From Squalus acanthias (taxonomy: Eukaryota), in contig CM059432.1 of the NCBI GenBank assembly GCA_030390025.1, positions 20,710,001 through 20,774,000 on the forward strand: DNA of 64,000 nucleotides, read 5' to 3'. The position numbers and the translations under genes were made by a program. The notes beneath the pieces were generated by a model that saw only the letters and a program-made list of their open reading frames with translations, was not told the origin of the DNA and made no database searches. This document shows, piece after piece, positions 8,190-42,370 of this stretch. Within the stretch, counting starts at the first letter, position 1. The number at the start of each line of letters is the position of its first letter.

Positions 8190-9000
8190 TCATTCTTGTC
8201 TGTTTCAATACCATATTCGAGTATCCATGTTATCTATTTTTCTTCTTGTGAGTAGCACTTTACATTTCTCTGCATTCAATTTCATCTGCCATTGTTCTGC
8301 CCACTTACAGATCTGTAATACCTGAGCAGCCTCTTCTAATTTCACTGCCCCTTGTAGTTTGGCATCATCTACAGAATTTGACCACTTTACATTGAGTTTC
8401 TAATCCAAGTTATTGATGTAAATTAGAAACAGTAATAGTCCCAGCATGAACCCCGAGACACCCCACTCAGTAGTTCCTACCACACTGACATAAGTCCTCT
8501 AATGACTATTCATTGTTTTCTACCCTTCAACCAGTTTCTTATCCAATCACAGGGTTTACTCTGAATCCACGCAGCTTTGAGTTTAATTAATAGCCTTTTG
8601 TGTGGAACTTTGTCAAATGCCTTTTGGGAGTTGAGGTACATAGAGTTTCCCAGAGTTCACTTGGGTTGTCATTTCCTCAAAGAAATCGAGGAGGTTGGGC
8701 AGGTAGAATTGTCCCCTTTTGAATCCATGCTCACTGCTGTTAACTAGGTTATTATTATGCAGATGATCCTTAAGTTTATTCCTGATAATGGATTCCATTA
8801 TTTTACATGGAATGGAACTAACACTAATAGATCTGTAGTTGCTTGTGTCTATTTTGTCACCCTTTCTGAATATACCTCCTCAGTGTCCAGTGACTCCCTC
8901 ATAATGATTGCCAGTGCCTTCGCAAATCTCCACCTTGGTCTCTCTCAGCATTCTGAGATAAGTATCATCTCTCCCTGGGGATTCATTGAGTCTGCTTGCC
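8190..9000 (-). mobile_element. Old CR1 RT fragment
   Basis: Degenerate RT (MESIIRNKLKDHL...NLLDFFEE). Confidence 0.7.
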
Positions 9001-11886: not shown

Positions 11887-13372
11887 ACATAAGAACATAA
11901 GAAATAGGAGTAGGAGTAGGCCATTCGGCCCCTCGAGCCTGCTCTGCCATTCAATAAGATCTTGGCTGATCTTCTACCTCAACTCCACTTTCCTGCACTA
12001 TCCCCATATCCCTTGATTCCCTTAATATCCAAAAATCTAGCGATCTCTGTCTTGAATATACTCAATGACTGAGCCTCCACAGCCCTCTGGGGTAGAGAAT
12101 TCCAAAGATTTACCACCCTCTGAGTGAAGAAATTTCTCCTCATCTCAGTCCTAAATGGCCGAGCCCTTATTCTGAGACTGTGACCACTGGTTCTAGACTC
12201 CCCAGCCAGGGGAAACATCCTCCCTGCATCTACCCTGTCAAGCCCTGTAAGAATTTTGTATGTTTCAATGAGATCACCTCTCATTCTTCTAAACTCCAGA
12301 GAATATAGGCCGATTCTACTCAATCTCTCCTCATAGGACAAAGCCCCCCATCCCAGGAATCAGTCTGGTGAACATTTGTTGCACTCCCTCTATGGCAAGT
12401 ATATCCTTCCTTAGGTAAGGAGACCAAAACAGTACACAATACTCCAGGTGTGGTCTCACCAGGGCCCTATATTATTGCAGTAAGACATCTTTACTCTTAT
12501 ACTCAAATCCTCTTGTAATAAAGGCCAACATAACCTTTGTTTTCTTAATTGCTTGCTGTATCTGCATGTTAACTTTCAGTGATTCGTGTACAAGGACACC
12601 CAGGTCCCTCTGAACACCAACATTTCCCAATCTCTCACCATTTAAAAAATACTCTGCTTTTCTATTTTTCCTACCAAAGTGGATAACTTCACATTTCTCC
12701 ACATTATATTCCATTTGCCATGTTCTTGCCCACTCACTTAGCCTGTCTATATCCCCTTGAAGCCTCTTTGCATCCTCCTCACAACTTACATTCCCACCTA
12801 GCTTTGTATCATCAGCAAACTTTGATATATTACATTTGGTCCCCTCATCCAAATCATTGATATAGATTGTGAATAGCTGAGGCCCAAGCACTGATCCTTG
12901 CGGTACCCCACTAGTTACAGCCTGCCAACCCGAAAATGACCCATTTATTCCTACTCTCTGTTTTCTGTCCATTAACCAATCCTCAATCCATGGTAATATA
13001 TTTCCCCCAATCCCATGAGCCCTAATTTTGTTCAATAACATCTTGTGTGGCACCTTATCGAATGCCTTCTGAAAATCCAAATACACCACATCCACTGGTT
13101 CCCCCTTATCTATTCTGCTAGTTACAACCTCAAAAAACTCTAACAGATTTGTCAAACATGATTTCCCTTTCATAAATCTGTGTTGACTCTGCCCAATCCT
13201 ATTATTATTTTCTAAGTGCCCTGTTACCACGTCCTTAATAATAGATTCCAGCATTTTCCCTACTATTGATGTCAGGCTAACTGGTCTGTAGTTCCCCGTT
13301 TAGTCTCTCCCTCCTTTCTTAAATAGTGGGATTACATTTGCTATCTTCCAATCCGTGGGAACCATTCTAGAA
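11887..13372 (-). mobile_element. 5'-truncated CR1 LINE (RT)
   Basis: 260-aa ORF 12472-13254 with RT motifs; 120-aa C-terminal ORF; (CATAAGAA)n tail on +. Confidence 0.95.
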
Positions 13373-13614
13373 TCAATATTGGTGTTAGATATGATATGTG
13401 GTTTGAAGGGCATCTCAATGTTGAACAAGCTACTGAGGTCGATGGAAAACTAGCCTCATACAATTGTTTGTCTCTGTTTCTCTCTTCTAGAGTATTTCAA
13501 CAGTCAGGATTTTCAAAAAGTAAGCTAGCAAATGATCTCTGTTGCTCAAATTGCAAGAATTGCATGTATATGAAAAAGCCACATTAGCCAACATAATGAA
13601 TACATTATTGTTGA

Positions 13615-14052: not shown

Positions 14053-14716
14053 TTCCCATTTTAATTTATTCTGATCCATAAGTTAGTAGCTCTGTGTCAC
14101 ACATTGTATTTATCACACATTACAATAATTGAAAGGTTTTTGTTTAAAAATTTACAATGCCCTTTCCTTTTCAGTTTGAGCAAAATTAAGGGTAGTGGGT
14201 AAAGGCTGGAAATGGTAATAATATAGATCTGACTTCAGTCCCATGGACAGAGGCACATGTAACCTGGGTGCGAACCAATTACGTGGCTTAAAAGATTGCA
14301 GAATTATTGGTGAGTTACGCACGTAACTACAATTCACCCAAACCTCATCCATCTTTTTTTGGCCATCTATCGATCCCTCCGCCCGAATGCATTTCCACCC
14401 ATAAACCTGGCCGTAGCCCCAAGATACAGAGCCTTGTATATGAGTTTCCTGAAATTGGTCTTGCTCTGAGGTTCTCTTAAAATTACGACTAGATTTTCAG
14501 ATGCAGCAGAAAGTAAATGTCATTTTTCGAGTGTTTTATTGTAATTTTTTTTTTAGTGGTTTTTGAAAAATGTATCCTCGCTGAGACCTGCACTGTATTT
14601 TCTGGTTCTTTTAAGGGCCGAGATCAGTTTGTAGAGGTGCCTGCGAGAATAGGGCTTCAAAACTCAAAATGAACTTGGGAGCAAATGATGGATTATGAAT
14701 TTAATGAAGGAGACCA

Positions 14717-15505
14717 TTTGTGCATGAGTTAAAACCAAGAGTGTAATTGGATGCGAGCATTTAGTAATAAATTAACACAACGACTAATGGCGGGGAGTTC
14801 ATTTAGTAATAAGCTAAGAGGGAGGATGTAACTATGTGTGGAGAGAATCATTTAGTAATGTCTTAAGACAAAGTCTATGGCTGGGGAGGAGGGGCTTGAA
14901 GTCATAATTACCTGAGCCAAAGCGTTTAACAAGGGTTGGTCCTTTAACAAGGGTCTTCAACAGGGTGTAATTTAGTCATGAGATAAGACTGGGAGTAAGA
15001 GTTGGATGGGGGGCATTTTGTAATGAACTAAGCCAAAGACTGATGATAGCAGACCAATTAATATTGAGAGAGAGAAAGTAATGGTTGGGGATATTTAGTA
15101 ATGATATGCAGTGTAACTCTGGGGAGAATGGTCATTTAATAATGACCTAAGAGAGAAGGCGTAGCTGTAAATAGTCAGTTCATAGTGAGCTGAGATAAAG
15201 TGTGTAACTGGAGTGGGATCATTTATAATGATATACAACTCAGAGTGTAATGGGGGATCATTTAGGTAATAACCTAAAACAGAGAGTAATGGTGGGGGAC
15301 ATCATTTAGTAATGAGCTAAGACAGAGGATGCAATTGTGTGGAGTCATTTAGTAATGATCTACAACACAGCTTGTAATGGGGCATTATTTAGTTATGAGC
15401 TAAGACAAAGGGCATAATTACGGGGAGTAATTTAGTAATGAGATAAGAGAGAGAATGTTACTGTGGAGCTAAAAGCTCAGAGAGAGACTATAACTATTAT
15501 ATGGG
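14717..15505. repeat. Degenerate minisatellite, ~17 units of ~37-55 bp
   Basis: Recurrent CATTTAGTAATGAGCTAAGA core at e.g. 14758, 14800, 14849, 15133, 15259, 15303, 15346, each followed by a variable purine-rich segment. Confidence 0.85.
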
Positions 15506-17912: not shown

Positions 17913-19058
17913 ATTATTTTTTTTTTCCTTTTTAATAACCAGGAATTAATGTCACTTGGAAGCATTGAGAATTTCTATGTGCTTGAGGGAGCAATTAAAC
18001 AGAAGAAATAACTAAGAGCCTGATGAAGTATTGTGTCAATAACAAATTACTTTGATGTGAAAAGGTTGTATCTTAAAAAGACAACAAAAGTCAATTTTAA
18101 ATGAAATTTTTCAAATTTGATCATTTTTATAACAGTGATGATGGATAAATTAGGAAATATGAAATGAGAAGCAATGTAGAAAATATATTGGCCCAAGGAA
18201 TTTTCCAGTGGGGCTAGGTGAGAGTCACAACAGATCATAAAAGATCCGATAGAGCAAGAAAAAAGAAATTAAAAAACCAACAATGGAAATGGCAATATAA
18301 GCACCCTGTTGTCACTCATAAGTTAAGGAACATTAAAAAGCAAGGAAAAGCTGTATCATCCCATCAAGTTCATTCCTTCCACTGATCACATACAAACCAC
18401 TTTATAAACAACTGTTCCCAATCTATTTCATTCCCACAGCAATGCAGTTTTTCTCTGTTTCTCCAGACATAAAGCAAACAAAATTCCATAATAGCTACCT
18501 AAACTTACATCCTACATTATAACACCCTTCACCAGTACTTTACTTGATATGATGCTCTAAGGTGCCAGTGGCTCAGGAACCATCTTGTTCCAAACAACAT
18601 TGGCTCAGAAATGGCTTGAAAAATACTGGTGAATTAACGGCACCCTGCCATTAATAGTTTGTAAAACATCTCGTAGTTTGTGGCAAAGAAGAGATACGCC
18701 ATGAGTTCTGATTCTCCACAAATTGCTGGACGATTTGTGCTGCTCCGCCGTTAACTTCTACAAAATTGCAATCTCGCCGTGAGCCTCCCCATTGAAATTA
18801 ATTGCAAGTCATTAAATTGCTGGATTTATACTGTTAATGCAAATTAATCTCACCACAGCCATTTAGAGCTGGTAATTCATGTCAAAAGGAGCCAGTTAAT
18901 GGGTCATTTATGGTCCTGACATGCCATTCAACCTTGAAGACTAAGAAAGGGAATAATTAATCTGTGGAGTCACACTCCCGCAGGTAGTAAATTGTTCCTA
19001 GAGGGTTTTAAAAACTTTAAATCCATTTTAGCAGTATTTCTGTGCCAGTCTAAACAGA

Positions 19059-22000
19059 GAGCAAGTAGAAATAAATGGGTATGATCTGATAGCCATTAAA
19101 GAGACGTGGTTGCATGGTGACCAAGGCTGGGAACTGAATATTCAGGGGTATTTGACATTTTGGAAGGATAGACAGAAAGGAAAAGGAGGTGGGGTAGCTC
19201 TGTTAATAAAGGATGAGATCAGTGCAGTAGTGAGAAATGATCTTGGCTCAGACGATCAAGATGTAGAATCAGTTTGGGTGGAGATAAGAAATAATAAGGG
19301 AAAGAAGTCACTGGTGGGAGTAGTCTATAGGCCCCCTAACAGTAGCTACACTGTAGGACAGAGTATAAATCAAGAAATAATGGGGGCTTGTAAGAAAGGT
19401 ACTACAATAATCGTGGGTGATTTTAATCTTCATACAGATTGGACAAAACAAATTAGCAAAGGTAACCTTGGGGATGAGTTAATAGAGTGTACTCAGGACA
19501 GTTTCTTAGAACAATAAGTTCTGGAACCAACCAGGGAAGGCTATTTTAGATATGGTAATGTATAATGAGACAGGATTGATTAATGATCTCATAGTAAAGG
19601 ATCCTCTAGGGAAGAGTGATCATAACATGATAGAATTTCACATTCAGGTTGAGGGTGAGAAACATGGGTCTGAAACTAGTGTCTTAAACTTAAATAAAGG
19701 CAATTACAACGGGTAAGAAGACAAAGTTGGCTATAGTGGACTGGGAAAATAGATTAAAAGTTAAGACGGTAGATAAGCAGTGGCAGACTTTTAAGGAGAT
19801 ATTTCATAACTCCCAACAAAGATATATTCCAGTGAGAAAGAAAGACTCTACGATGAACCATCTAACTAAGGAAGTTAAGGAGGGTATCAAATTGAAAGAA
19901 AAGGCATACAATGTTGCGAAGATTAGTGCTAGGCCAGAAGATTGGGAAATTTTTAGAAACTTGCAAAGGATGACTAAAAAAATAATAGAGGGAGAAAATA
20001 GATTATGACAGTAAACTAGCAAGAAATATAAAAACAGACAGTAAGAGCTTCTACAAGTATATAAAAAGGAAGAGAGTAGCTAAAATAAACATTGCTCCCT
20101 CAGAGGATGAAACTGGGGAACTAATAATGGGAAACAAGGAAATGGCTGAGACTTTGAACAAATATTTTGTATCTGTCTTCACAGCAGAAGACACTAAAAG
20201 CATCCCAATAATAGTGGAAAATCAAGGAGCAAAAGGGAGGGAGGAACTTAAAACAATCATTATCACTGGAGAAAAAGTACTAGGCAAACTAACGGGACTA
20301 AAGACTGACAAGTCCCCTGGACCTGATGGCCTACATCCCAGGGTCTTAAAAGAAGTGACTGCAGAAATAGTGGATGCATTGGTTGTAATCTTCCAAAATT
20401 CCCTAGATTCTAGAAAGGTCCCAGCGGATTGGAAAAGCGTAAATATAATGCCCTGATTCAAGAAAGGAGGGAGACAGAAAGCAGGAAACTATAGGTCAGT
20501 TAGCCTAACATCTGTCACTGGGAAAATGCTGGAATCCATTACAGGAAACTTTCGTTTATCCGGCACCCAAATATCCGGAATTCTCGCTTAACCGGCAAAA
20601 ATCATCCTCCGAAAACTCCTCTCAAATAACCGGCAATGTTGCCGAGTCGCAGTCGAATCTCTGCGAACGCCGAGTGCTCCGAAAAATCCTCTCAAATAAC
20701 CGGCAATGTTGCCGATCCCGAGTCCGAGTCAGAGTCCGCGAACGCCGATTTAGTCAGTAGGGGTACTTTTCAAAAGTGCCACTATTCGGCCTCCTGGCGC
20801 TGTTGCAAGTCCGAAACATTGCAGTAGCATGAGTAGATTCTCCCGTGCTGCTTGGAGTCTCTTTGTTAAAAATAGCCTCGGTAGATATAACTCTCTGTTA
20901 TCCGGTACTTTCGATAAACCGGCACCACGCCGGTCCCGTCGATGCCGGATAAACGAAAGTTTCCTGTATTAAGGAAGTAATAGCAGGACACTTAGAAAAT
21001 CATAATACAATCAAGCAGAGTCAACATGGTTTTATGAAAGGGAAATCGTGTTTGACAAATTTATTAGAGTTCTTTGAGGATGTAACGAGTAGGGTGGATA
21101 AAGGGGAACCAGTAGATGTAGTGTATTTGGATTTCCAAAAGGCAGTCGAAAAGGTGCCACATAAAAGGTTACTGCACAAGATAAGAGCTCATGGTGTTGG
21201 GGGTAATATATTAGCATGGATAGAGGATTGGCTAACAAACAGAAAACAGAGAGTCGGGATAAATGGGTCATTTTCAGGTTGGAAAACTGTAACTAGTTGG
21301 GTGCCACAGGGATCGGTGCTGGGGCCTCAACTATTTATAATTTATATTAATGACTTGGATGAAGGGACCGAGTGTACTGTAGCCAAATTTGCTGACAATA
21401 TAAATAAATCAAGTTGTGAGGAGGACACAAAGAGTCTGCAAAGGAATATAGATAGGTTAAGTGAGTGGGCAAAAATTTGGCAGATGGATTATAATATGGG
21501 AAGTTGTGAGGTTATCCACTTTGGCAGAAAGAATAGAAAAGCAAACTATTATTTAAATGGAAAGAGACTACAGAATGCTGCGTTACAGAGGGATCTGGGG
21601 GTCTTCGTACATGAAACACAAAAAGCTAGCAAGTAATTAGGAAGGCAAATGAAATGTTGGCCTTTATTGCAAGGGGGATGAAGTATAAAAGAAGGGAAGT
21701 CTTGCAACAACTGTACAGGGCATTGGTGAGACCACACCGAGAACACTGCGTACAGTTTTGGTCTCCTTATTTAAGGAGGGATATACTTGCATTGGAGGTA
21801 GTTCAGAGAAGGTTCACTAGGTTGATTCCTGGGATGAAGGGGTTATCTTATGAGGAAAGGTTGAGCAGGTTGGCCTATACTCATTGGAGTTTAGAAGAAT
21901 GAGAGGTGATCTTATTGAAACATATAAGATTCTGAGGGGATTGGACAGGGTAGATGCTGAGTGGATGTTTCCCCTCGTGGGGGAATCTAGAGATTGGGGG

Positions 22001-22297
22001 CATAGTTTCAGAATAAGGGGTCGCCCATTTAAGACGGAAATGAGGAGGAATTTCTTCTCTCAGAGGGTCATGAACCTTTGGAATTATCTACCCCAGAGAG
22101 CTGTGGAGGCTGAGTCATTAAATATATTCAAGGCTGAGATAGACAGATTTTTGAACTACAGGGGAGTCAAGGGTTATGGGGAACAGGCAGAAAAGTGGAG
22201 TTGAGGCCAAGATCAGATCAGCCATGATCTTATTGAATGGCGGAGCAGGCTCGAGGGGCCGAATGGCCAGCTCCTGCTCCTATTTCTTACGTTTTTT
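19059..22297 (+). mobile_element. CR1 LINE, near-complete ORF2, decayed
   Basis: EN (VVYRPP, GDFNLH) and RT (PQGSVLGP, FADN) ORF pieces; 3' tail; interrupted at 20542-20966. Confidence 0.95.
20542..20966. mobile_element. Tc1/mariner (pogo/Tigger-like) MITE
   Basis: Perfect 24-bp TIR CAGGAAACTTTCGTTTATCCGGCA; TA TSD at 20540-20541 and 20967-20968. Confidence 0.92.
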
Positions 22298-22669
22298 GTC
22301 TTGCTATCCACACTCTCTTAGTGTCAGAAGGCAATAATTTTCTGTATGCAAAGCTGTTTCGATACTCAGAAATGTAAATTAGATAGATTTATTTCAGAAA
22401 CAAACATTTTTGGATACAGTATATGAGTAATTTGAGACATGACGTGGTAAATATAGTAGGCTTGGGAGGAAAAAGTTGACATTGGACCTACAATTCCCAA
22501 AGCTCTCCACCACCGGGGTTTTCCTCACCTCATGTTTGGGTCTATTGTAGAGTCATTCAAAGAGATTGATTGCTAAAATTAGTTAACAGCTCTAGTATCA
22601 TTGTATCATGCAACTACCAGGATGGTAGAAATGAGCTAGATGGATTTTGGTCTTTTTTCTCCATCACCA

Positions 22670-24830: not shown

Positions 24831-24904
24831 AGACTGCCATAATGCACATCAGTTGCGCATTATGGCAGCAATATGTAAAATCTAGAGGAAGCAACGCAGC
24901 CATT

Positions 24905-25218
24905 CACCAAGGTTACTTTGACCGCACCTCCCTCCCCTGTGACCTCTACTGTAGACAAGGACAAAAGCAGCAATGTAATGGGGGACACCATCACCCTCAA
25001 GTTCCGCTCCAACTCACACACCAACCTAATTTTGACAAATATCACCATTCCTTCATCGTTGCTGGGTCAGTATTCCGAAATTCCCTAACTGATACCACTG
25101 GGGAAACATCATCCAGACAAGGATGGCAGTGGTACAAGAAGGTGGCCCACCACCACCTTTGCAGGGCAACCTGGGAAATAAATGCGACCTTCCCCACATG
25201 ACGAGAACAATTCAAAAA
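24905..25218 (+). mobile_element. 3' fragment of the same LINE family as 26566-29988
   Basis: TTCCTTCATCGTTGCTGGGTCA...AAGAAGGTGGCCCACCACCACCTT matches 29798-29910. Confidence 0.75.
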
Positions 25219-25845: not shown

Positions 25846-26565
25846 AAATGGAAGTAAAATGTTGTGTTAAAATGGTTATTTCTGACTTTCCATTATAGAC
25901 ACATGATCATAGGTTCTGCCAGCTTGGCTAACAAAGTGGCTCTTTTGTGCAGCAGTCACTCACAGCTGCGCTGTTATAAATTTCAGCTTCATCCTTCGGG
26001 GTGGGTAATTAGAGTGTCAACTGGCATTAAAGCAGGTCACAATGGGCATTAGCCTCTGACTGTGAACTCCAGTGCTTTTTGGTTTCTTTACAGTAATAGA
26101 TGAATGAGATTTGTCTTGTAATATTGAGCATTCATTTATTTATAAGAAAGTGGCCTTTTTTAATTGAATAACAAAACCAAAGTAAAGGTAAGGATATATT
26201 AATGGCTTTTTATTTAAAATCTGGGTATTAAAAATATAGAAAGACCAAATTATTTGCAGAAATTATTCCATTTATAAATATTCTGCTTGGGTTCACTGCC
26301 ATTGAATACGCCCATAACTGGTCCTTGTGACGTCCATACCAAAGTTTGATCGTACCTGCCTAATATCTGGTAAATGCAATTAGGCTCAGGAGTCATTGTA
26401 CTCTGGCTTACTGGATTATATTACATGAGAAATTAATTTAATATTAAACGGGTAAATGAATGGTATTCAGTACAAACAGTATTGTAGTAGTTGCAAATCT
26501 TACTATTTTTGAAATGTCAAAACAACTAAGATGCTTCTCTTGTGATAACCTTTAATATAAATATC

Positions 26566-29500
26566 GGGAACGGTAGCATAGTGGTTATGTTACTGGACTA
26601 GTAATCCAGAGGCCTGGGCTAATGATCCGGCGACATGAGTTCAAATCCCACCATGGCAGCTGTGGAATTTATAATTAATTATAACGCTTGATTTTAAAAA
26701 GCCCATCTGGTTCACTAATGCTCTTTAGGGAAGGAAATCTGCAGTCCTTACCTGGTCTGGCCTATATGTGACTCCAGACCCACAGCAATGTGGTTGACTC
26801 TTAACTGCCCTCTGAAATGGCCTAGCAAGCCACTCAGTTGTAACAAACCGCTACGAAAAACAACAATAAGAAGAATAAAACCAGACAGACCACCCGGCAC
26901 CGGCTACGGACAGGGCAATGGCACACCCAGCCCTGTTGACTCAGCAAAGTCTTCCTCACAAACATCTGGGGACTTGTGCCAAAATTGGGAGAGCTGTCCC
27001 ACAGACTAGTCAAGCAACAGCCTGACATAGTCATACTCACAGAATCATACCTTTCAGCCAAGGTCCCAAACTTCTCCATCCCTGGGTTAGTCCTGTCCCA
27101 CCAGAAGGACAGACCCACCAGGGGTGGCGGCACAGTGGTATACAGTTGGGAAGGGAGTGGCCCTGGGAGTCCTCAACATTGACTCCGGACCCCATGAAGT
27201 CAAACATGGGCAAGGAAACCTCCTACTGATTACCACCTACCGCCCTCCCTCAGCTGATGAATCAGTACTCCGCCATGTTGAACACCACTTGGAAGAAGCA
27301 CTGAGAGTAGCAAGGGCACAGAATGTACTCTGGGTGGGGGACTTCAATGTCCATCACCAAGAGTGTCTCGGTAGCACCACTACTGACCGAGTGGGCTGAG
27401 TCTTGAAGGACATCGCTGCCAGTCTGGGCCTGCAGTAGGTGGTGAGAGAACCAACATGAGGGAAAAACCTCGTCCTCACCAATCTACCTGTTGCAGATGC
27501 ATTGGTAGCAGCGACCACTGCACAGTCATTGTGAAGACGAAGTCCCGTCTTCACACTGAGGACACCCTCCATCGTGTTGTGTGGCACTACCACCGTGCTA
27601 AATGGGATAGATGCAGCTAAAACTGGGCATTCATGAGGCGCTGTGGGCCATCAGCAGCAGCAGAATTGTATTCCATCACAATCTGTAACCTTATGGCCTG
27701 GCATATCCCTCACTCTACCATTACCACCAAGCCAGGGGACCAACCCTGGTTCAATGAGGAGTGTAGAAGAGCCTGCCAGGAGCAGCACCAGGCGTACCTA
27801 AAAATGAGGTGCCAACCTGGTGAAGCTGCAACACAGGACTACATGCATGCTAAACAGCGGAAGAAGCATGCTATAGACAGGGCAAAGCGATCCCACAATC
27901 AATGGATCAGATCAAAGCTCTGCAGTCCTGCCACATCCAGCTGTGAATGGTGGTGATCCATTAAACAAATAACGGGAGGAGGAGGCTCCATGAATATTCA
28001 CATCCTCAATGATGGCAGAGCCCAGCACGTGAGTGCAAAAGACAAGGCTGAAGTGTTTACAACCATCTTCAGCCAGAAGTGCTGAGTGGATGATCCATAT
28101 CCGCCTCCTCCTGAGGTCCCCAGCATCACAGAAGCCAGTCTTCAGTCAATTTGATTCACTCCACGTGATATCAGGAAACAGCTGAGAGCACTGGATACAG
28201 CAAAGGCTATGGGCCCCGACAATATGCTGTTATGCTGAAGGCTTGTACTCCAGAACTAGCTGCACCTCTAGCCAAGCTATTTCAGTACAGCTACCACACT
28301 GGCATCTATCCGACAATGTGGAAAACTGCCGAGGTATGTCCTGTCCACAAAAAGCAGGACAAATCCAATCCGGCCAATTACCGCCCCATCAGTCTACTCT
28401 CAATCATCAGCAAAGTGATGGAAGGTGTCGTTGACAGTGCTTTCAAGCGGCACTTACTAACCAATAACCTGCTCACCGATGCTCAGTTTAGGCTCTGCCA
28501 GGACCACTCGGCTCCAGACTTCATTACAGCCTCGGTCCAAACATGGACAAAAGAGCTGAATTCCAGAGGTGAGGTGAGAGTGACTGCCTTTGACATCAGG
28601 ACAGCATTTGACTGAGTCTGGCATCAAGGAGCCCTAGTAAAACTGAAGTCAATGGGAATCAGAGGGACAACTCTCCACTGGCTGGAGTCATACCTAGCAC
28701 AAAGGAAGATGGTTGTTGTTGTTGGAGGTCAATCATCACCGGCTCAGGACATCACTGCAGTAGTTCCGCATGGAAGTGTCCTAGGCCCTACCATCTTCAG
28801 CTGCTTCATCAATGACCTTCCCTCCAACATAAGGTCAGAAGTGGGGATGTTCGCTGATGACTACATAGTGTTCAGTGCCATTCGCAACTCCTCAGATAAT
28901 GAAGCAGTCCATGCCCACATGCAGCAAGACATGGACAACTTTCAGGCTTGGGCTGATACGGGTAGCGTGCTGAGTCACTGTTCCACTGGATCAGGACAAT
29001 CATGGCCACGCCTACGGGATTCATCAGAAGCCTCGGCATGTATGACCAAGCTCGCAAACCATTCAGTTCTTATATTGAGCGGATGGAGATTTTTTTAATG
29101 GCCAAAAACATTATTGAGACTGAAGACACAGATGAGAATGTTCAAGCTCAAAATAAAGTAATTCGTGAACGAAAAAGCAATTTTTCTAATGGAGATCGGG
29201 CCAGATCGCGGTACAGAAGTGCCAGGCAATGACTATCTCCAACAAGTGAGAGTCTAACCACCTCCCCTTGACATTCAACGGCATTACCATCGTCAAATCC
29301 CCCACCATCAACATCCTGGGGGTCACCATTGACGAGAAACTTAACTGGACCAGCCACATAAATACTATGGCTACAAGAGCAGATCAGAGGTTAGGTATTC
29401 TGCGGCGAGTGTCTCACCTCCTGACTTCCCAAAGCCTTTCCACCATCTACAAGGCACAAGTAAGGAGTGTGATGTAATACTCACCACTTGCCTAGATGAG

Positions 29501-29988
29501 TGCAGCTCCAACAACACTCAAGAAGCTCGACACCATCCAGGACAAAGCAGCCCGCTTGATTGGCACCCCATCCACCACCTTAAACATTCACTCCCTCCAC
29601 CACTGGTGCACCGTGGCTGCAGTGTGTACCATCTACAAGATGCACTGCAGCAATTTGCCAAGGCTTCTTCGGCAGCACCTCCCAAACACACAACTTCTTC
29701 TACCTAGATGGACAAGGGCAGCAGGCGCATGGGAACACCACCACCTCCAAGTTCCCCTCCAAGTTACACACCATCCTGACTTGGAAATATATCGCCGTTC
29801 CTTCATCGTCGCTGGGTCAAAATCCTGGAACTCCCTCCGTAACAGCACTGTGGGAGTACCTTCACCACACGGACTGCAGTGGTTCAAGAAGGCAGCTCAC
29901 CACGACCTTCTCGAGGGCAATTAGGGATGGGCAATAAATGCTGGCCTTGACAGCGACGCCCACATCCCAGGAACGAAGATTAAAAAAA
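26566..29988 (+). mobile_element. CR1/L2-group LINE, single EN-RT ORF, tRNA-like 5' head
   Basis: A box TAGCATAGTGG 26574-26584, B box GTTCAAATCC 26639-26648; EN (PDIVILTESYL, YRPPS, GDFNVHH); RT (ANYRPISLL, PHGSVLGP, FADD); tail GGGATGGGCAATAAATGCTGGCC. Confidence 0.9.
28959..29205 (+). mobile_element. Ty3/Gypsy gag N-terminal fragment inside the LINE
   Basis: MATPTGFIRSLGMYDQARKPFSSYIERMEIFLMAKNI...ERK/AIFLMEIGP resembles the Y.ER...F..AN.I...K.A.FL..IG Gag pattern. Confidence 0.7.
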
Positions 29989-30102
29989 TTACATGAAAAT
30001 ATGCTATCACAGATCCCTCCGATTATCTCCTTCAGTGCTGGCTTCAAACCGACTGCTCTTTTATTGCAATGCAGCCAATCCCCAAATTCTGTTCAAGGGG
30101 CC

Positions 30103-30814: not shown

Positions 30815-33056
30815 AAAGATAGACCAGGAGTAAAAGTTCTCAATTGGGGAAAGGCCAATGTTACTAAGCAGGAATGTGATTTAGCAAAAGTGGACTGGAA
30901 ACAGCTACTTGAAGGTAAATCAGTGTCAGAGCAGTGGGAGGCATTCAAGGAGGAGATAGTGAGGGTTCAGAGCAAAAATGTACACACAATGAAAAAGGGT
31001 GGGACTCCCAAATCTAGAGCCCCCAGATGTCAAGGGGCATACAGGGTAGGATAAGGCAAAAAAGGGAAGCTAATGTCAGATACCGAGAGCTAAATACTGC
31101 AGAAAGCCTAGAGGAGTATAGAAAGTGCAGGGGTGAAATTAAAAAGGAAATTAGGAAAGCAAAGAGAGGGCATGAAAAAATATTGGCAAGTAAAATCAAG
31201 GAAACCCCAAAGATGTTTTATAAATACATTAAGAGCAAGAGGATAACTAAGGAAAGAGTAGGGCCTATTAGAAACCAAAAAAGTTAACCTGTGTGTGGAG
31301 GCGGAAGATGTGGGCACGGTTCTTAATGAATACTTTGCGTCAGTCTTCAGGGAAGAGAGTGATGATGCAGACATTGTAGTTACGAAGGAGGAGTTTGAAA
31401 TATTAGATGAGATAAATGAGAGAGGAAGTATTAAGGGGTTTGGCATCTTTGAAAGTAGATAAATCACCAGGACCAGATGAAATATATTCCAGGCTGTTGC
31501 GAGAAGCAAGGGAGGAAATCGCGAAGGCTCTGACCATCATTTTTCAATCCTCTCTGGCTACAGGTGTGGTGCTGGAGGACTGGAAGACTGCTAACGTTAT
31601 GCTGTTGCTTAAAAAGGGAGAAATGGATAGACCAAGTAATTACAGGCCAGTCAGCCTAAACTCAATGGTGGGCAAATTATTAGAAAAAATTCTGAGGGGC
31701 TGTATTAATCGTCATTTAGAAAGGCACGGATTAATCAAGGACAGTCAGCATGGATTTGTTAAGGGAAGGTTGTGTCTGACGAACTTGATTGAATTTTTTG
31801 AGGAGCTAACAAGGACGGTTGACAAGGGTAGTGCATTTGATGTAGTCTACATGGATATTAGCAAGGCTTTTGACAAGGTCCCACATGGCAGACTGTTCAG
31901 AAAAGTAAAATCCCATGGGATCCAAGGGAAAATGGCAAGTTGGATTCAAAATTGTCTCAGTGGGAGGAAGCACAGGGTAATGGTTGACGGGTGTTTTTGT
32001 GACTGGAAGGCTGTTTTCAGTGTGGTTCCGCAGGGCTCAGTACTAGGTCCCTTGCTTTTTGTGGTATATATCAATGATTTAGACTTCAATGTAGGGGGCA
32101 TGATTAAGAAGTTTGCAGATGATACAAAAATTGGCCGTGTGGTTGATAACGAGGAAGAAAGCTGCAGACTGCAGGAGGATATCAATGGACTGGTCAGGTG
32201 GGCAGAAAAGTGGCAAATGGAATTCAATCTGGAGAAGTGTGAGGTAATGCCTTTGGGGAGGGCTAACGAGGCAAAGGAATACACAATAAATGGTAGGATA
32301 ATGAAAAGTGTAGAGGAACAGAGGGACCTTGGAGTGCATGTCCACAGATCCCTGAAGGTAGCAGGACAGGTAGATAAGGTGGTTAATAAGCCATACGGGA
32401 TACTTTCCTTTATTAGCCGAGGCATAGAATATAAGAGCAGGGAGGTTATGCTTTAATATAAAAGCAGGAAGGTTATGCTTGAACTGTATAAAACACTAGT
32501 TAGGCCACAGCTAGAGTACTGCGTACAGTTCTGGTCACCACATTACAGGAAAGATGTGGTTGCACTGGAGAGGGTACAGAGGAGATTTACGAGGATATTG
32601 CCAGGACTGGAGATTTTTAGCTATGAGGAAAGATTGGATAGGCTGGGGTTGTTTTCTTTGGAGCAGAGGAGGCTGAGGGGAGAATTAATTGAGGTGTATA
32701 AAATTATGAGGACCCTAGATAAAGTGGATAGGAAGGACCTATTTCTCTTAGCAGAGAAGTCAATAACCAGGAGGCATAGAGTTAAAGTAATTGGTAGAAG
32801 GATTAGAGGGGAATTGAGGAGAACTTTTTTTACCCAGTGGTGGGGGTCTGGAACTCACTGCCTGAAAGGGTGGTAGAGGCAGAAAGGCTCATCACATTTA
32901 AAAAGTACTTGGATTAACACTTGAAGTGCTGCAACCTACAAGGCTACGGACCAAGAGCTGGAAAGTGGGATTAGGTTGGATCGCTCTTTTTCAGCCGGCA
33001 CAGATACGATGGGCCGAATGGCCTCCTTCTGTGCTGTAAATTTCTATGATTCTGTG
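30815..33056 (+). mobile_element. 5'-truncated CR1 LINE (TTCTATGA-tail subfamily)
   Basis: 346-aa RT ORF 31416-32456 (NYRPVSL, KAFDKVPH, PQGSVLGP, FADD); tail TTTCTATGATTCTGTGA. Confidence 0.95.
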
Positions 33057-33530: not shown

Positions 33531-33809
33531 GGAAAGATAAAGGATGAGAGAGTTAAAGTGAAAATTCTAATCTTTAAAATATGTAATTGTATATATTTGG
33601 AAACTTGGAATATTCTCATTTTTCAACTAATTTAGTGAAGGATTTTAAACTTTTACAATTCAGGACACTGAACTCCTCTGACACTGACCTGCGACAAAAT
33701 AGCAGATTTATGGTTTCAGCAGAGATTCATGTGTTGAATTTCTAGCCGCCTGATGTAATCTCTACAATTTGGAGTGTTACAAGTCAGTAATGCAATAGGG
33801 GGAGCCAAA

Positions 33810-34272
33810 ATTGATTCCTGGGATGAGAGATTGTGTAGAATGGCCCGATACTCTCTGGAGTTTAGAAGAATGAGAGGTGATCTCATTGAAACATACAAGA
33901 TTCTGAGGAGAATTGACAGGGTAGATGCTGAGAGGCTGTTTCCCCTGGCTGGAGTGTCTAGAACTAGGGGGCATAGTCTCAGGATAAGGGGTAGGCCATT
34001 TAAGACCGAGATGAGGAGGAATTTCTTCACTCAGAGGGTTGTGAATCTTTGGAATTCTCTGCCCCAGAGGGCTGTGAATGCTGAGTCTTTGAGTATATTC
34101 AAGGCTGAGTGAGATAGATTTTTGGACTCGAGGGGAATCAAGGGATATGAAGATCGGGCAGGAAGGTGGAGTTGAGGTCGATGATCAGCCATGATCTTAT
34201 TGAATGGCGGAGCAGGTTTGAGGGGCCATATGGCCTACTCCAGCTCCTATTTCTTATGTTTTTATGTTCTTA
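33810..34272 (+). mobile_element. CR1 3' fragment
   Basis: YSLEFRRMRGDLIETYKI; TTCTTATG tail. Confidence 0.92.
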
Positions 34273-34614
34273 AAAGTACCATTGTGTTCCTGTCCATAAC
34301 TATATTTTGTATAAATGTAATAACTATGATAGTTAATTAAGGGTGGTTAAAATTCAGCTAGATCCTTCTGAACTATTAAGTTGGTTGGTCATTGAAGAGG
34401 TTTGGAGTAATGTTTCAGGATGAAGAGTACAACAGATTTAAACTAGTTTGTCAGGGGGCTGGGAACCTAAGTGTGGGCCCAGAACAGAGAGAAACAAAGC
34501 TGGAAGTGAAAGTTAGAAAAGTAGTCAGCAAAACTAGTAAGGAGCAGAAACAAAGGCTAACAGTAAAGAGGGTCAAAGTGCAGAAAAATATTAAATAGGC
34601 AAAGTTGAAGGCAC

Positions 34615-34808
34615 TGTGGTAACACAATACAGCTTCCTGTGACTCGAACTTTATTGCATCACTTCCTGTGATTAGTCCAGGATAAATACTGGACTGATCA
34701 GTTGGATCCTGGAGAGGCATAGAGTAAGACCTCTTTTGTATGTAGCACCTTTTTAGTTGATTAAAGCTTACTTTAAGTTCACCACGCGTAAGGCTCATTC
34801 TTACGACA
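34615..34808 (+). mobile_element. Solo LTR (194 bp)
   Basis: TGTGGTAA...TTACGACA termini; 5-bp TSD GGCAC; GATAAATA TATA-like and ATTAAA poly(A) signals. Confidence 0.88.
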
Positions 34809-35453
34809 GGCACTTTATCTAAATGCACATAGCATTCGCAACAAGGTTGATGAATTAATGGCACAAATAGAAGTAAATGGGTATGATATAATTGCCATTA
34901 CAGAGACATGGTTGCAGGGTAACCAAAGCTGGGAACTGAATGTTCCAGGGTACTCAACATTTAGGAAGGACAGACAAACAGGAAAAGGAGGTGGCGTAGT
35001 GCTGTTAATAAGGGATGAAATCGGTACGGTAGAGATAAAAGATCTTAGCTCGGCAGACCGTGATGTGGAAAGGAATCAGTTTGGGTGGAGCTAAGAAACA
35101 GCAAAGGGTGGAAAACATTGGTGGGAGTTGTGTATAGGCCACCAAACAGTAGTGGTAATGTAGGGCACAGTATCAATCAAGAAATTAGAAGTGCATTTAA
35201 CAAGGGCAATACGGTAATCATGGGGCACCTGAATCTACATATTGACTGGACAAATCAAATTACCACCAATGGTGTGGAGGACGAATTCTTGGAATGCATG
35301 CGAGATGGTTTCCTGGATCAGTATGTGGAGGAACCAACCAGGGAACAGGCTATTCTGGATCTGGTACAATGTAATGAGAAAGGGTTAATCAATAATCTTG
35401 TGGTAAAGGGGCCTTTAGGAACAAGTGACCATAATATGATTGAACTTTACAAT

Positions 35454-36196
35454 GGCCCAAAAATTAGTGCCGCTACGCGAGAGTACGCACTGTGTACTCT
35501 CGCGTATTCTGTCTCCAATTGCCGGTTTTCTGCATGCACTGCGCATGCGCTGAAAACCGGCACTTGGTGAATTCAAAAGGGGGCGGTTCCTAGGTGAACC
35601 GCGTGCGCGCTACAGGCTGCGCGCACGCAGTGCACTTAGTGCTTTGAACGCGCAGGTAAGCATGGAACATTTTAGACATAAAGAAAGGAGGCGTAAGACC
35701 CACTTTTAACAAGGTAAGTAGTTAATTAAGTATTATTTTGATTTTTTTTTAACAGGTATATCTTTTTTAGAGACTTTAAAGACAGGTAAGTTTATTTTTA
35801 TAACTTTTTAAAAGATTTTAAATTTTTTCAAAAATTTAATTTTTTGTTTAAAATGGTTAATTTATTTAACTATACTTATTTTATTAATGTGATGGTTTTT
35901 AAAAAAAATTTAATTGAGGTTTAGCTGTTCTTTTGGGGGGGTATAGATTCATAGCTTTCACAGCACTTATGTGAAAGCTGTGAATGAAAGATAGTGTGCT
36001 GCCATTGGCTCTAACTGAGTCACGTGATCCCACAGCTCGCACGAATTAACTGCGCCTGTGGGATACGGAAGCACTGCCCAGCTGCTGTCCAGAACATCAA
36101 GTTCGTGCGAGCTGGGACTGAAAAAGCCAGCGCGCAGTGAGAGATCGCGGGGAAGCCTTACCCTCGCACGAAGGCTCCCTCACGAATTTTTGGGCC
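35454..36196. mobile_element. Harbinger-type non-autonomous TIR element
   Basis: Perfect TIR GGCCCAAAAATT / AATTTTTGGGCC; flanks AAT/ATT; CR1 resumes after it. Confidence 0.88.
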
Positions 36197-36736
36197 ATTA
36201 AGTTTGAGAGTGATGTAGTCCAATCTGAAACTAAGGTCTTCAATCTAAACAGAGGAAACTACAAGGGTATGAGGGACAAGTTGGCCATGGTAGATTGGGA
36301 GACTACACTAAAAGGTACGAAGGTGGACATACAATGGCTAACATTCAAGGAAATAATGCACAATTTGCAACAAACATATATTCCTCTAGGGCATAAAAAC
36401 CCAAAAGGAAAAGTGATCCAACCATAGCTAACAAAAGAAATTAAAGCTAGTATTAAGTCAAAGGAGGAAGCTTATAAAGTTGCCAGAAAAAGCGGTCAGC
36501 CTGAGGATTGGGATCTTTTTAGAAATCAGCAAAGGGGGACCAAGAAATTGATAAAGAAAGGGAAAATGGAATATGAGCACAAACTAGCGAAAAATATAAA
36601 AACGGATTGTAAAAGCTTCTATAGGTATGTGAAAAGGAAAAGACTGGCGAAGGTAAATGTAGGTCCTTTATAGTCAGAGATGAGAGAATTTATAATGGGG
36701 AATGAGGAAATGGCAGAGAAATTGAATAAATACTTT

Positions 36737-37437
36737 GAGCTGGATTTTCATTGATCCGTGGAGGCGGGTTTGGAGGCGTGTGGGGGGTTAAAATTGCGAA
36801 AACTGGCGGGCGGGCACAAGTCCTCCTCCATCCCGCCTCCACGCAATTTTCATTAAATCGTGTCTGCTGGTCCCGCCTCTAAGAGGCGGGATAGGCTGTT
36901 AAGGCCCTTAACAAACAATAAATTGCCTCTATAAAGCCATTTTGAAAGGCCTTTGTGATTTTAACCCTTTTTCTACGTGAAGCACGCCTGTTCTGAACCA
37001 CGAATGTGAAACCTGGTGGGAGCACATTTGGCTGGCTGGCTGGCTGGCTATGGGGATGCATATATGGATGGCTATGTGGATGGATGGCTATGTGGATGGA
37101 TGTATATATGGATGGATGGAGAGGAGACATATCTAGGAGTGATGGTGTAAAAATATCTGGGAGCAGACTTAGGGCTGCTGCTGCTCATTTTGCAGGTCCT
37201 CTCACAGCAAAGGCCAGGCAGTCTCTGAAGAACTTCAATGCAGCTGCAATGATGACATCATCAGAGGCGACTTTCAGACTGAAAACATTAATTGGTTCAT
37301 GGGTTCCCACATGCTGGAACTCAATTGCCCAATTAGGTGAAAATTGCATCAATCTCCCACATCCAATTGCAGTCGGGTGGATAACACGAAAAGTGGATGA
37401 CACGACCCCAACCCGCCCCAGTATCAAAATCCAGCCC
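36737..37437. mobile_element. Harbinger-type non-autonomous TIR element (family B)
   Basis: GAGCTGGATTTT / AAAATCCAGCCC, TSD TTT/TTT; homologous to 42371-43158; internal (TGGC/TGGA)n. Confidence 0.88.
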
Positions 37438-37498
37438 TTTGTTTCTGTCTTCATGGAGGAAGACACAAAAAACCTCCCAGAAATATGAGAAAACCAAG

Positions 37499-37716
37499 TG
37501 ACATGAATCTTGTTATTCATGTATGAAGTAATACTGGGCAGCCTGCTGGTGGCGCTGTCCAGAGAGAGTATAAATACTCGGGCATGGGCCCAGCTTGCTT
37601 AGGACATTCCTCAACAGGAACTAGTGAAGGACACAACTAGATCTCCATGTTGAAAAACAGTTGATTAAAGCATTGTTTAACGCTTAGACCAAGTGCCTAG
37701 TAGTTTTCTTACGTCA
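37499..37716 (+). mobile_element. Solo LTR (218 bp)
   Basis: TGACATGA...TTACGTCA termini; 5-bp TSD CCAAG; TATAAATA and ATTAAA. Confidence 0.88.
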
Positions 37717-40700
37717 CCAAGGGTTTGGCGAGAATGAGGAACTTAAAAAAATTATTATTAGTAAAAAAACAGTACTAGCAAAATTAATGGGACTAAAAGT
37801 CGATAAATCCCACGGACCGGATGACCTACATCCTAGGGTTTTGAAAGAGGTGGCCATTGGGATAGTGGACGCATTGGTTGTCATCTTCCAAAATTCTATA
37901 GATTCTGGAAAGGTTCCTGCAGATTGGAGGATATCAAATGTAACCTTGCTATTTAAGAAAGGAGGGAGAGAGAAAATGGGGAACTACAGACCTGTTAGCC
38001 TCACATCAGTAGTTGGGAAAATGCTGGAATCTATTATAAAGGATGCAATAACTGGGCACTTAGAAACTAATACTGTAGTAAGATTGGGCAGAGTCAACAT
38101 GGATTTATGAAAGGGAAATCCTGTTTGACAAACCTATTGGAGTTCTTTGAGGATGTAACTAGTGGAGTAGACAAAGGGGAACCGGTAGATGTGGTGTATC
38201 TGGATTTACAGAAGGCCTTTGATAAGGTCCCACACAAGAAGTTGGTGAACAAAATTAGGGCACATGGAATTGAGGGTAATATACTGGCATGGATTGAGAA
38301 TTGGTTAACAGACAGAAAACAAAAAGTAGGGATAAACGGATCTTTTTCAGGATGGCAGGCTGTGACTAGTGGGGTACCGCAAGAATCGTTGCTTGGGCCC
38401 CAGCTATTCACAATCTATATCAATGATTTGGATGAGGGGACTAAATGTAACATTTCCAAATTTGCTGATGATACAAAGCTAGCTGGCAGTGTCAGTTGTG
38501 AAGAGGATGTGAATAGGCTTCAAGGGGATCTCAACAGGCTCAGTGAGTGGGCGGGAACATGGCAGATGGAATATAATGTGGATAAATGTGAAGTTATCCA
38601 CTTTGGTAGAAAAAACAGAAAGGCAGAGTAGTTCCTAAATGGTGAAAGATTGGGCAATGCAGATGCTCAGAGGGACCTGGGTGTCCTTGAACATGAGTCA
38701 CTGAAAGTGAATGTGCAGGTGCAGCAAGCCATTAGGTAGGGAAATGGTATGCTGGCCTTCATTACCAGAGGATTTGAGTACAGGAGTAAAGAAGTCTTAC
38801 TCCAATTATATAGGGCCTTAGTGAGACCACACCTGGAGTACTGTGTACAATTTTGGTCTCCTTACCTAAGGAAGGATATACTTGCCATAGAGGGAGTGCA
38901 ACGAAGGTTCACGAGATTGATTCCTGGGATGGCGGGACTGTCGCATGAGAAGAGATTGAGTAAACTAGGCCTGTATTCTCTTGAATTCAGAAGAATGAGA
39001 GGGGATCTCATTGAAGCATACAAAATTATTACAGGGCTTGATAAGGTGGATGCTGGGAGAATGTTTCTCTTGGCTGGGGAGTCTATAACCAGGGGCCACA
39101 GCCTCAGGATAAAGGTTAGGCCATTCAGGACTGAGATGAGAAGAAATTTCTTCATACTTCAAAGGGTGGTGAATCTTTGGAATTCTCTACCCCAGAGGGC
39201 TGCGGAGGCTCAGTCATTGGGTATATTCAAAACAGAAGTCAATAGATTTCTGACTAGTAAGGGCATCAAGGGATATGGCGATAGGGCCGGTGAATGGAGT
39301 TGAGGCAGAAGATCAGCCATGATCTCATTGAATGGCGGAGCAGGCTCGAAGGGCCGAATGGCCTACTCCTGCTCCTATTTCTCATGTTCTTATGTTCTTA
39401 TGTAACAGAAGTTCTGCTAAAGATCCTTAGGTCTATTGACAAAAGGATCAATGATACAGTAATGAGTTTGCCAGTGTGCTATTGATAAGCAAAAGAGAAT
39501 CTAATATATATGTTTTAACAGCATAACACTGATTTTTCAAAGACTGCCTTCTTGAAAGTGCTTGTCCAAGCTTTTTAAAAAAACACTTATTACATATACA
39601 CAGGGCTATAATGTAAATCACATCCTGTGTCACTTGTGTGTGACATTTCATTGTGACTAGAATCATGGACTGTTCTGTTGTCGCTTCTTCCTTGCCAAAC
39701 GAAAGTTGGCAAGCCACTTATTCATGAAAACTGTGCATCTTTGAGAGAAAATAACTGGCAGAGTTCAAAGCGTTATTGTTCAGGGTGTCCCATCACACTT
39801 GACCTACAGTGTAACACTGTTCATTGAAGATCTTCTACGGGTCTTTGCCTCATGGCCAATGTGTATTTGATGAAGTTAATTCATTATTATTAGATATCAA
39901 TATTTGCGATCAGATTATGATTTATCATTGTTGAATGTGGCGCTTTTCTCTGAAGCTCAGAATTTTTTCCCTCAACGACTGGAGATTGCATTTTATCCAA
40001 CATTAAATTATGCTCCCCCCCACCGACCACTTATGAAGCAAGTGACAGTGATCTTTTATTGTAAGCTACATTTTCATACAGGGCTATTTTTTGATGGCTA
40101 GTTGCTCAAGCAGTGATTTTACTGTGAGCTCCATGGACTTTCCCCCATTTATTTCTGTGAGACTAATAACAATTGCTCTCCATCAGGCGTATTAGACGGT
40201 AGAAAACCAAACAGAAATCGCTGCACGTCAGGTTACTGCATGTAAGGCTATATTTATGCCATGAAGAAGTTAGAATTTGTATTTCTTTTATTGATTTCAA
40301 TTTTAGCTTCAGAATGACTTTCCCTAGTTTGACACACAGCACCAGTACTTAAGATGTCATGCAGTGTCATTAACATTTATGAAAGGGTATTTCAGTACTT
40401 GGAGGAGTTTGAGACAACGACACCAATGCTCCCATTAAATGCATGCTTTACACATGAACAGAGCATCTCGTCAACAATCTCAAATTCCTGTGGTACGCAC
40501 AGCCTGAATTGAAGCGGACACATTTGTACAACAACTGTAGTACTTCAATATGTGGGGAAATGTTAGCAAAATGAACAGCAATGCAAACATGAGAAGAATG
40601 GAATGCAAAAAGAAAGCCATTCACCTATTGGGACTACTCATTCTAGCAGATCAAATCCAATATACTTGTCATAGACTCTCCTTGGTTTACTTTGTCTGCT

Positions 40701-41190: not shown

Positions 41191-41819
41191 GCAAGACAAA
41201 ATCAAGAAAAAGGTACTTCTATCCCATTTACTTCCAGATATTTGTCAGACAACTGCACTAAAACCGTATGGCACCAAGTTAGATATAATATCAGCCAGGC
41301 TGCAGCATGGACATGTATTCATCAAGTGCCCCGGACCAGTCATTGCTTCCCCTTTCATGGACCCATGGACTGGAGCTCTGGTGACAGTAGGGGACAGAAG
41401 AGATAACATCTTTCCTCGGACAACCTGGGAGATGGGATGCAGGCTGCCGTCTCTCGGGGCTTTGAGTAGCTGATAGCTGCCATTAGACAGCCAGCCCGCT
41501 GATCAGTGGGAACAGATCCAGGACCTTGTAGAATGGTGACAGCTGGAGGTGACTTGCACGAGGCTGCTGTTTCTCAAGGCAGCAGCACATGCCAGGCCTC
41601 TGGCTCTCCCTCTCAGAACACCATGTTGGAGGTGACACCAGGCTGTCCAGGAAAAAGCTCCAGTGATGTAGCCAACAACAGCGCACTCCCAAAAGCAAGC
41701 TGCCAAGAGAGGCAGGCCACCTCAGTCCCATGAGCCTTTTATTGTACAGGAGCAGCTAAACACCTGGGCATAATACCGAGCTGTCGGGGTAGAGGATCTT
41801 GGCCGTGGGTCCTGCTTGT

Positions 41820-41941
41820 TATTAAAAACCCAACCACTTTGCTAATGTTCTTCAGGAATAAACCTGCCATTCCTACCTGGTCTATCCTACACTATGTGGT
41901 TGACTCTTAATGCCCTCAGGGATCGGTAATAAATACTGGCC
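41820..41941 (+). mobile_element. Head-tail (bipartite) derivative of the 26566-29988 LINE
   Basis: ATGTGGTTGACTCTTAATGCCCTC (LINE 5' part, 26788) joined directly to AGGGATCGGTAATAAATACTGGCC (LINE 3' end, 29923). Confidence 0.7.
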
Positions 41942-42370
41942 TGGAATTCGGAGCAATGGCGATCTTGGCGATGAATGTTATAAATTAGACCGCTATGTGC
42001 CTTGATATTCCAGTGACAAATTTACGCCAAAATTTGCTGGAGATCTGATTACAATATGCCGCAACAAGCAGACCAGTAAATTTGAAGCAGCACGGCCAAT
42101 AACCAGTTGATACCACCACTTACATTCCTATTAATGGAGCAGTGAAATAAAGTCATATCCCTCTGAATGATACTTCTAATTTAAATGTTAAACATGGCAC
42201 ATGAAGCATTCCATTGTGGCAAATTATAACTATTTAGGTTATGGCATTAGTGATATTAATTACTCTTGGTATTATTTAAACTATACTTTTATTAATTGAA
42301 ATATTTCTAGGAAATGCTTAGGTTTTGATATGTTGTGCCTAGTACTTTCTTGTCATAGAATAAACATTAG

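Follow-up and report, generated by a model that had tools for sequence, protein, structure and literature searches.

The 64-kb window, i.e. the whole stretch of Squalus acanthias DNA analysed here, contains a LINE with a tRNA-like head at positions 26566–29977 of the plus strand, followed by an A-tail. The element is a member of an abundant shark and ray family. Without a foreign insert this copy is 3,151 nt long, plus short deletions; the family element measures about 3.2–3.3 kb. The features of the copy, and of two related fragments elsewhere in the window, are listed with the evidence for each.

24863–25185, +, older remnant of the 3′ part of a related LINE, 70% identical, 1.4 kb upstream in the same orientation (BLAST)
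26566–26660, +, tRNA-derived head with a long variable arm (weak Rfam tRNA-Sec match, tRNA alignment against shuffles, common 5′ end)
26574–26584, +, A box (pattern match)
26639–26648, +, B box (pattern match)
26661–26816, +, remaining 5′ UTR, hereafter the body, common with SINE-like deletion forms (alignments, contigs)
26817–26819, +, putative ATG start of the single ORF, in the same frame as the endonuclease (protein P0242 is open from the same ATG)
26820–26945, +, basic extension at the N-terminus of the ORF, interrupted here by three stops (translation, comparison with P0242)
26946–27560, +, APE-type endonuclease domain, decayed, right end approximate (Pfam)
28232–28958, +, reverse transcriptase (RT) core, decayed (Pfam, protein matches, tree)
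28959–29219, +, foreign 260-nt insert, repetitive (skipped by contigs of other copies)
29220–29924, +, RT thumb and C-terminal domain, down to the stop codon TAG (ORF list, alignments)
29925–29977, +, 3′ UTR of 53 nt with AATAAA at 29933, common with SINE-like forms (alignments, contigs)
29978–29988, +, A-rich tail (sequence, contigs)
41814–41945, +, headless diverged deletion derivative, body (26686–26812) joined to tail (29923–29950) (pairwise alignment)

The copy is dead because of stops, frameshifts and the 260-nt insert. An initial annotation made from the letters alone had called an endonuclease, an RT and a defined 3′ end. All three were confirmed by Pfam domains and by contigs that leave the element at 29977. 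Exo_endo_phos matches are weak (E values of 0.014 and 2e-05) and place the endonuclease from about 26950; RVT_1 matches have E values of 1.7e-06 and 3.8e-12, and the endonuclease and RT pieces follow in order up to the ORF stop TAG at 29922–29924. A search for a target-site duplication around the element gave none that was convincing, the best common word being 6 nt in AT-rich DNA. Compared with protein P0285, some linker sequence near 26680 (26660–26700, between head and body) seems to have been lost. The insert replaces about 28 nt of the LINE instead of inserting cleanly, and RT is thereby interrupted; it encodes a gag-like peptide whose Atlas features lie at 0.78 to Retrotrans_gag clusters, which we treat as a lead only. 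Both long T runs of the locus (T7 at 29090 and T5 at 29181) sit inside this insert.

The tRNA-like head

The initial annotation had placed an A box at 26574 and a B box at 26639, and both are present. The pair (26574–26584 and 26639–26648) is the sole match of its kind in the 64-kb window, and 0 of 100 shuffles gave one, with a pattern written after the head had been seen. A looser pattern matched once in the window, compared to 0.03 matches expected. Rfam returned a weak tRNA-Sec match to the head (19.9 bits against a gathering threshold of 47), and ARAGORN called no tRNA anywhere in the 64-kb window; both results are expected of a decayed SINE-type head. The head was next aligned with 26 tRNAs called in 35 viral loci that had been fetched with a head-derived pattern. 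The best alignment was to tRNA-Ser(GCT), with a score of 61 compared to a shuffle maximum of 40.5, followed by tRNA-Met with 56.5. Since the fetch was biased to that arm, we call the head Ser-like as a best guess. Folding of head and body was no better than that of shuffles (z of −0.21 and −0.05), which leaves a structured ribosome-entry site without support.

Searches with motifs of the body returned no match in viral contigs, none in plasmids, and 37 matches in prokaryotes, none of which extended to the element. The phage search yielded a single weak tRNA-Asp match. ARAGORN at a relaxed threshold made 131 calls in 80 metagenome loci, and these were judged to be noise.

The head as 5′ end of a shark and ray family

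The stretch or part of it is present in 20 of the 24 sequencing runs listed, from 9 studies. Four public runs were mapped on 26350–30100 at 85% likeness, small-share runs X19 and X20 being left out. Fitting contigs numbered 430,093 in X1, 237,240 in X4 and 11,781 in X17, and X23 contributed 137 reads; X17, only guessed to be RNA, was not counted toward transcription. Contigs define both boundaries of the family. The left boundary lies exactly at 26566, where at least 984 contigs (X1) and 671 (X4) pass into unrelated AT-rich flanks (agreement 0.32), and the right boundary at 29977, where at least 642 and 441, respectively, run into an A-tail. Insertion targeted to tRNA genes was considered and rejected, the flanks left of the head being unrelated between copies. 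The flanks left of 26566 in other copies in X1 and X4 are strongly AT-rich, suggesting a preference for AT-rich targets. In X17, a small group of 6 contigs leaves the element at 26723.

Among the loose ends listed for X1 and X4 (the best 21 of 9,414 rows), no headless or ORF1-type 5′ end was found between head and endonuclease. The smallest row among those listed holds 122 contigs in X1 and 64 in X4. With the first bin corrected (36 of its 126 bases are covered), sequencing depth immediately past the body amounts to 24% of that over the head in X1 and to 16% in X4. From this depth, a fixed headless end should give about 230 contigs in X1, where loose ends were partly counted, and about 110 in X4, which is near the detection limit. 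The corrected first-bin depth is about 1.5M (X1) and 2.0M (X4), compared to 0.3–1.3M in the 5′ part of the ORF; SINE forms dominate the depth of the head. Depth gives no measure of the share of head-bearing LINEs. The contigs are short, and head and ORF were seen directly on one molecule in this copy only.

The ATG at 26817 has a good context, lies within the body shared with SINE-like forms, 251 nt from the 5′ end, and is in frame with the endonuclease. The proteins closest to the element are whale-shark gene models and a manta protein (about 51–79% identity), which points to a cartilaginous fish as the source of the window. A protein search among 1.84 billion representatives returned 42 proteins. 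The best of the 42, P0242 from whale shark, aligns from its residue 1 and is open from ATG 26817 into the endonuclease, with 55% identity over 117 residues; the ORF thus probably starts at this ATG. Two further whale-shark proteins, P0246 and P0243 (gene models, perhaps spliced), and P0251 link peptide from the body with the endonuclease. When residues 1–31 of P0246 are back-translated, they match the 3′ part of the head with a score of 20.1, compared to maxima of 17.8 for 142 stretches of the window and 18.4 for 100 shuffles. This match is suggestive of an N-terminus derived from the head; the likeness was first noticed by eye, and the full-length alignment stops short of it. A search of gene models for a head-to-ORF span found one protein, the SINE form P0285.

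Taken together, the common 5′ end, the lack of another 5′ end among those listed, the start codon within the body, the body–endonuclease joins and the N-terminus of P0246 make chance adjacency unlikely and argue strongly for a family-wide linkage of head and ORF, indirect as the linkage is in copies other than this one. They bear out the earlier description of a single-ORF LINE with an integral SINE-type head. The description had also stated that there is no room for ORF1, and this holds, since just 251 nt precede ATG 26817.

Contigs of other copies reveal internal deletions. Skips from 26817–26856 to 29829–29917 account for 6 of the 15 joints listed and for 6 of the 12 rows of a second skip listing, the two listings running on for another 4,347 and 468 rows. 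Their right-hand ends are of at least eight different kinds, i.e. there are several breakpoints. As read from short contigs and from P0285, which is a translated SINE-like deletion form, these derivatives retain both UTRs together with the first and last codons of the ORF. The ends kept and the several breakpoints are those of a LINE that produces SIDEs, as in the Persaeus/Zenon type. The element carries an A/B-box tRNA-like head, as in tRNA-derived SINEs. Only its deletion forms, which may or may not all bear the head, are short and non-coding, the LINE itself being 3.2 kb long with an endonuclease–RT ORF. The short form presumably resembles AmnSINE2.

The derivative at 41814–41945 had been taken as support for an integral head, and in this the initial annotation was mistaken. 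Its body part scores 85 compared to a shuffle maximum of 41, and 24 of 28 tail positions are identical; a search for the head in it gave a score of 21 against a shuffle mean of 18.6, i.e. the head is absent. The derivative is therefore no evidence for the head being integral. The overall architecture, with one ORF, the head as a fixed 5′ end and SINE-like offspring produced by deletion, is nevertheless highly probable.

Relatives and comparison with known elements

A quick tree had placed the element in a 44-row group without finer placement. A maximum-likelihood tree was then built from 35 rows using RT plus the C-terminus; the metagenome locus L065 and short shark fragments were omitted because of their length. 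The element shares a 16-row clade (100/99) with five proteins labelled Zenon-like by eye against a figure of Zenon-1_Hmel, the tree itself holding no authentic Zenon sequence. Its branch is long, its place within the clade is not fixed by the tree, and its nearest relative is about 41% identical. The CR1 copies of the window fall on a separate 100/99 side, so that the element does not group with classic vertebrate CR1. The PDB profile search matched only L1 ORF2 and R2. The element has the single ORF, the APE endonuclease and RT, the length within about 3.1–3.7 kb, the short 3′ UTR and the poly(A) of Zenon, and lacks ORF1. Its 5′ UTR departs from the Zenon definition of a 5′ UTR without tRNA homology, carrying A and B boxes and no likeness by eye to Zenon 5′ UTRs. 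We file it as Zenon-allied, a placement that falls short of proven membership in Zenon.

In a metagenome scan of 80 loci, locus L001 alone is a full-length member of the same clade, and it has no head, so the head is not general to the lineage. As Zenon elements and L001 have neither ORF1 nor head, the single ORF appears to be inherited and the head to be a new trait. The initial annotation was thus right that ORF1 is absent, but its view of this absence as a departure from the norm did not stand, since the closest described relatives, the Zenon elements in the available part of PMC6740152, lack ORF1 too. The 5′ region of L001 contains two near-identical 45-nt repeats (380–425 and 440–485), in which Rfam found nothing. 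The repeats have what we take to be the look of a degenerate self-cleaving ribozyme core.

According to the part of the Zenon description available (PMC6740152), Zenon elements of Lepidoptera are 3.1–3.7 kb long, have one ORF and repeatedly yield deletion forms (Persaeus) without tRNA homology; neither Zenon nor these forms are described there with a tRNA head, and a LINE promoter is presumed. The shark element resembles Zenon in its single ORF, 5′ UTR of about 250 nt and short 3′ UTR with poly(A), and in the recurrent deletion forms, in which both UTRs and both ends of the ORF survive (PMC6740152). The start of the endonuclease and a C-terminal motif are similar by eye, and the element is a tree neighbour of Zenon-like proteins. 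It differs in that the Persaeus/Zenon 5′ UTR lacks tRNA homology or a Pol III promoter, as the same source states for SIDE, in that Zenon-1_Hmel carries runs of four or more T, and in forming a long separate branch.

Several other systems share individual traits with the family. Its short forms, composed of a tRNA head, a LINE 5′ part and a LINE 3′ part, are like tRNA-headed SINEs with bipartite RTE/Vingi bodies (PMC5786205, PMC7245038). In those SINEs, as far as PMC5786205 describes them, the head sits on a non-coding bipartite derivative of RTE/Vingi, whereas here it sits on a coding LINE of the CR1 group; bipartite LINEs are held there to be Pol II products, and an exchange of 5′ UTR from SINE to LINE is suggested for Ingi-3_AC. 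The shark pairs HE1/HER1, SacSINE1 and CmiSINE/L2-2_CM, and SINE2-1_CM/CR1-2_CM have in common with the family the host group, tRNA heads and a 3′ end shared by SINE and LINE (PMC5499810, PMC3747384). These SINEs share only the tail with their LINE, and no head-bearing LINE is described in the available text (PMC5499810), the distinction being drawn from descriptions, not from sequence. In U6-L1 and tRNA-L1 chimeras, too, the sequence of a Pol III gene is fused to LINE coding DNA on its 5′ side, and the head is likely to have originated in this way, but those described are mostly single insertions, unlike a high-copy family with one common 5′ end (PMC13174262). The class ‘CR1-Zenon like LINE’ of whale shark probably includes the shark family; in the portion available it is a RepeatMasker class count, with no structure or head described (bioRxiv 10.1101/443036).

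The literature searched contained no description of a tRNA-headed LINE, and the head-bearing family is apparently undescribed there; Repbase, Dfam and subscription journals were outside this coverage, so a deposit in them is possible. A possible precedent for SINE sequence in the 5′ end of a LINE, BovB, found no confirmation in the literature searched.

T runs and the putative polymerase

LINEs are taken to be transcribed by Pol II, and SINEs to be transcribed by Pol III and non-coding. A check of the sense strand for depletion of T≥4 terminators had been proposed in the initial annotation, and this copy shows such a depletion. Leaving the insert aside, a single T≥4 run occurs on the sense strand (at 26692 in the linker, absent from the 41814 copy), or 0.32 per kb. 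The corresponding densities are 3.2–6.0 for five stretches of CR1 in the window, 7.6 for L001, 2.8 for L065 and 6.8 for window background. Zenon-1_Hmel has 7 such runs in about 2.56 kb of the sequence available, as counted by eye. With protein and third-base usage fixed, the ORF has 0 T≥4 runs in 909 codons against 3.5 expected (P = 0.016) and 11 T≥3 runs against 20.6 expected (P = 0.001). The 17 control LINEs have 3–38 T≥4 runs, and in 3 of the 17 the T≥4 test likewise gives P < 0.05. Avoidance of TTT is no stronger than that of other codons ending in T (6/16 compared to 65/129, P = 0.64), and dinucleotide shuffles gave P values of 0.10–0.22. The depletion, observed in one decayed copy, is thus partly a matter of composition, and the ORF without TTTT is suggestive of Pol III but is not proof. 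AATAAA lies 40 nt before the tail in all three window copies, which is compatible with Pol II or Pol III.

Pol III-made Alu RNA needs no ORF1p, while Pol II-made Alu RNA does, and the cap that favours translation of L1 is missing from Pol III RNA, as far as the available part of PMC2666806 goes. Since Pol III RNAs can retrotranspose without ORF1p, an ORF1-less LINE is a plausible host for a Pol III head (PMC2666806). The loss of ORF1 itself would be no consequence of Pol III transcription, because it predates the head, as Zenon and L001 indicate.

We propose, at about an even chance, that a Zenon-allied, ORF1-less shark/ray LINE acquired, as its 5′ end, a SINE-type head resembling tRNA(Ser), and that this head became the internal Pol III promoter of the family. 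Pol III would initiate at 26566 from the A and B boxes, read about 3.2–3.3 kb, as the sense strand avoids TTTT, pass through the A-tail and, like Alu, terminate where the flank first offers a T run (30059 here). Lacking a cap, the RNA would be translated at a low rate and by some means other than simple scanning, seven ATGs preceding 26817 in this copy. Through TPRT the protein would copy both its own RNA and that of the deletion forms, and SINE-like offspring would arise by internal deletions that join the 5′ UTR and first few codons to the last codons and 3′ UTR. The case for Pol III as the main polymerase of the coding element is about evenly balanced. The complete picture of an autonomous coding retrotransposon, about 3.3 kb long, transcribed by Pol III, translated uncapped, purged of terminators and giving birth to SINE families by internal deletion, is tentative and falls somewhat short of an even chance.

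Full-length coding RNA may instead come from Pol II, through a promoter in the body or host read-through. The head, though integral, would then have been gained by recombination with a derived SINE via the shared body, and would serve only the short forms or act as a TFIIIC/chromatin helper. We consider this possible but rather unlikely. It agrees with the headless state and presumed LINE promoter of Zenon and its deletion forms, as far as described in PMC6740152, with the attribution of bipartite LINEs to Pol II and the 5′ UTR exchange suggested for Ingi-3_AC in the available part of PMC5786205, and with the conserved AATAAA near the 3′ end; capped RNA is easier to translate (PMC2666806, in the part available), and the low T content could have other causes. 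However, the 5′ end of the copies coincides exactly with the head's first base, where Pol III would start, the ORF of a decayed copy has zero T≥4 runs while headless relatives carry many, and the seven upstream ATGs would impede scanning of a capped RNA too.

The exact 5′ end and the T depletion would also be accounted for if Pol III made the full-length template while protein came from capped Pol II read-through of other copies, the element being in effect a very long SINE mobilised in trans. Such a split life cycle avoids the translation of uncapped RNA, and Pol III RNAs are good trans substrates in the available part of PMC2666806, but a 2.9-kb ORF under selection needs a benefit in cis, and a second species, the whale shark, still has the frame open from the ATG in the body; we regard this life cycle as improbable. 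Far less probable, and largely refuted, is a one-off event in which a SINE landed on, or template-switched onto, a 5′-truncated LINE, with true full-length LINEs starting otherwise. Chimeras of small RNA and LINE are common for L1 (PMC13174262, in the part available), no second head-to-ORF molecule was seen directly, and there is no clear target-site duplication. Yet in a whale-shark copy the frame runs open into the endonuclease from the start codon, which sits within the body common to the SINE-like forms, and body and endonuclease are joined in other copies as well. The loose ends listed include no other 5′ end, though depth right of the junction is 16–24% of head depth.

A high-copy LINE with a SINE head as its 5′ end breaks the division between Pol II for LINEs and Pol III for SINEs. 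Such a LINE offers a one-step route from LINE to SINE, and the complete picture, if true, reverses the usual model of SINE birth in which a head is added to a tail. If made by Pol III, its RNA would be a natural multi-kilobase coding Pol III transcript. Two questions become directly testable: can RT be provided in cis by Pol III RNA that has no cap, and does the type of polymerase govern the need for ORF1, as proposed from Alu/L1 assays in the available part of PMC2666806.

The window contains other repeats. Many decayed classic CR1-type copies, used here as controls, lie at 1200–4050, 8200–8900, 11900–13400, 19000–22300, 31400–32900, 33800–39400, 48200–48600 and 54200–56000. A diverged tandem array with a period of about 42 nt (family D7) occupies 14708–15458. 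Five copies of another SINE-like family, D6, which we assume to be of the SacSINE1 type, are found at 25741, 46913, 53692, 63205 and 63766 and have no BLAST match to the element.
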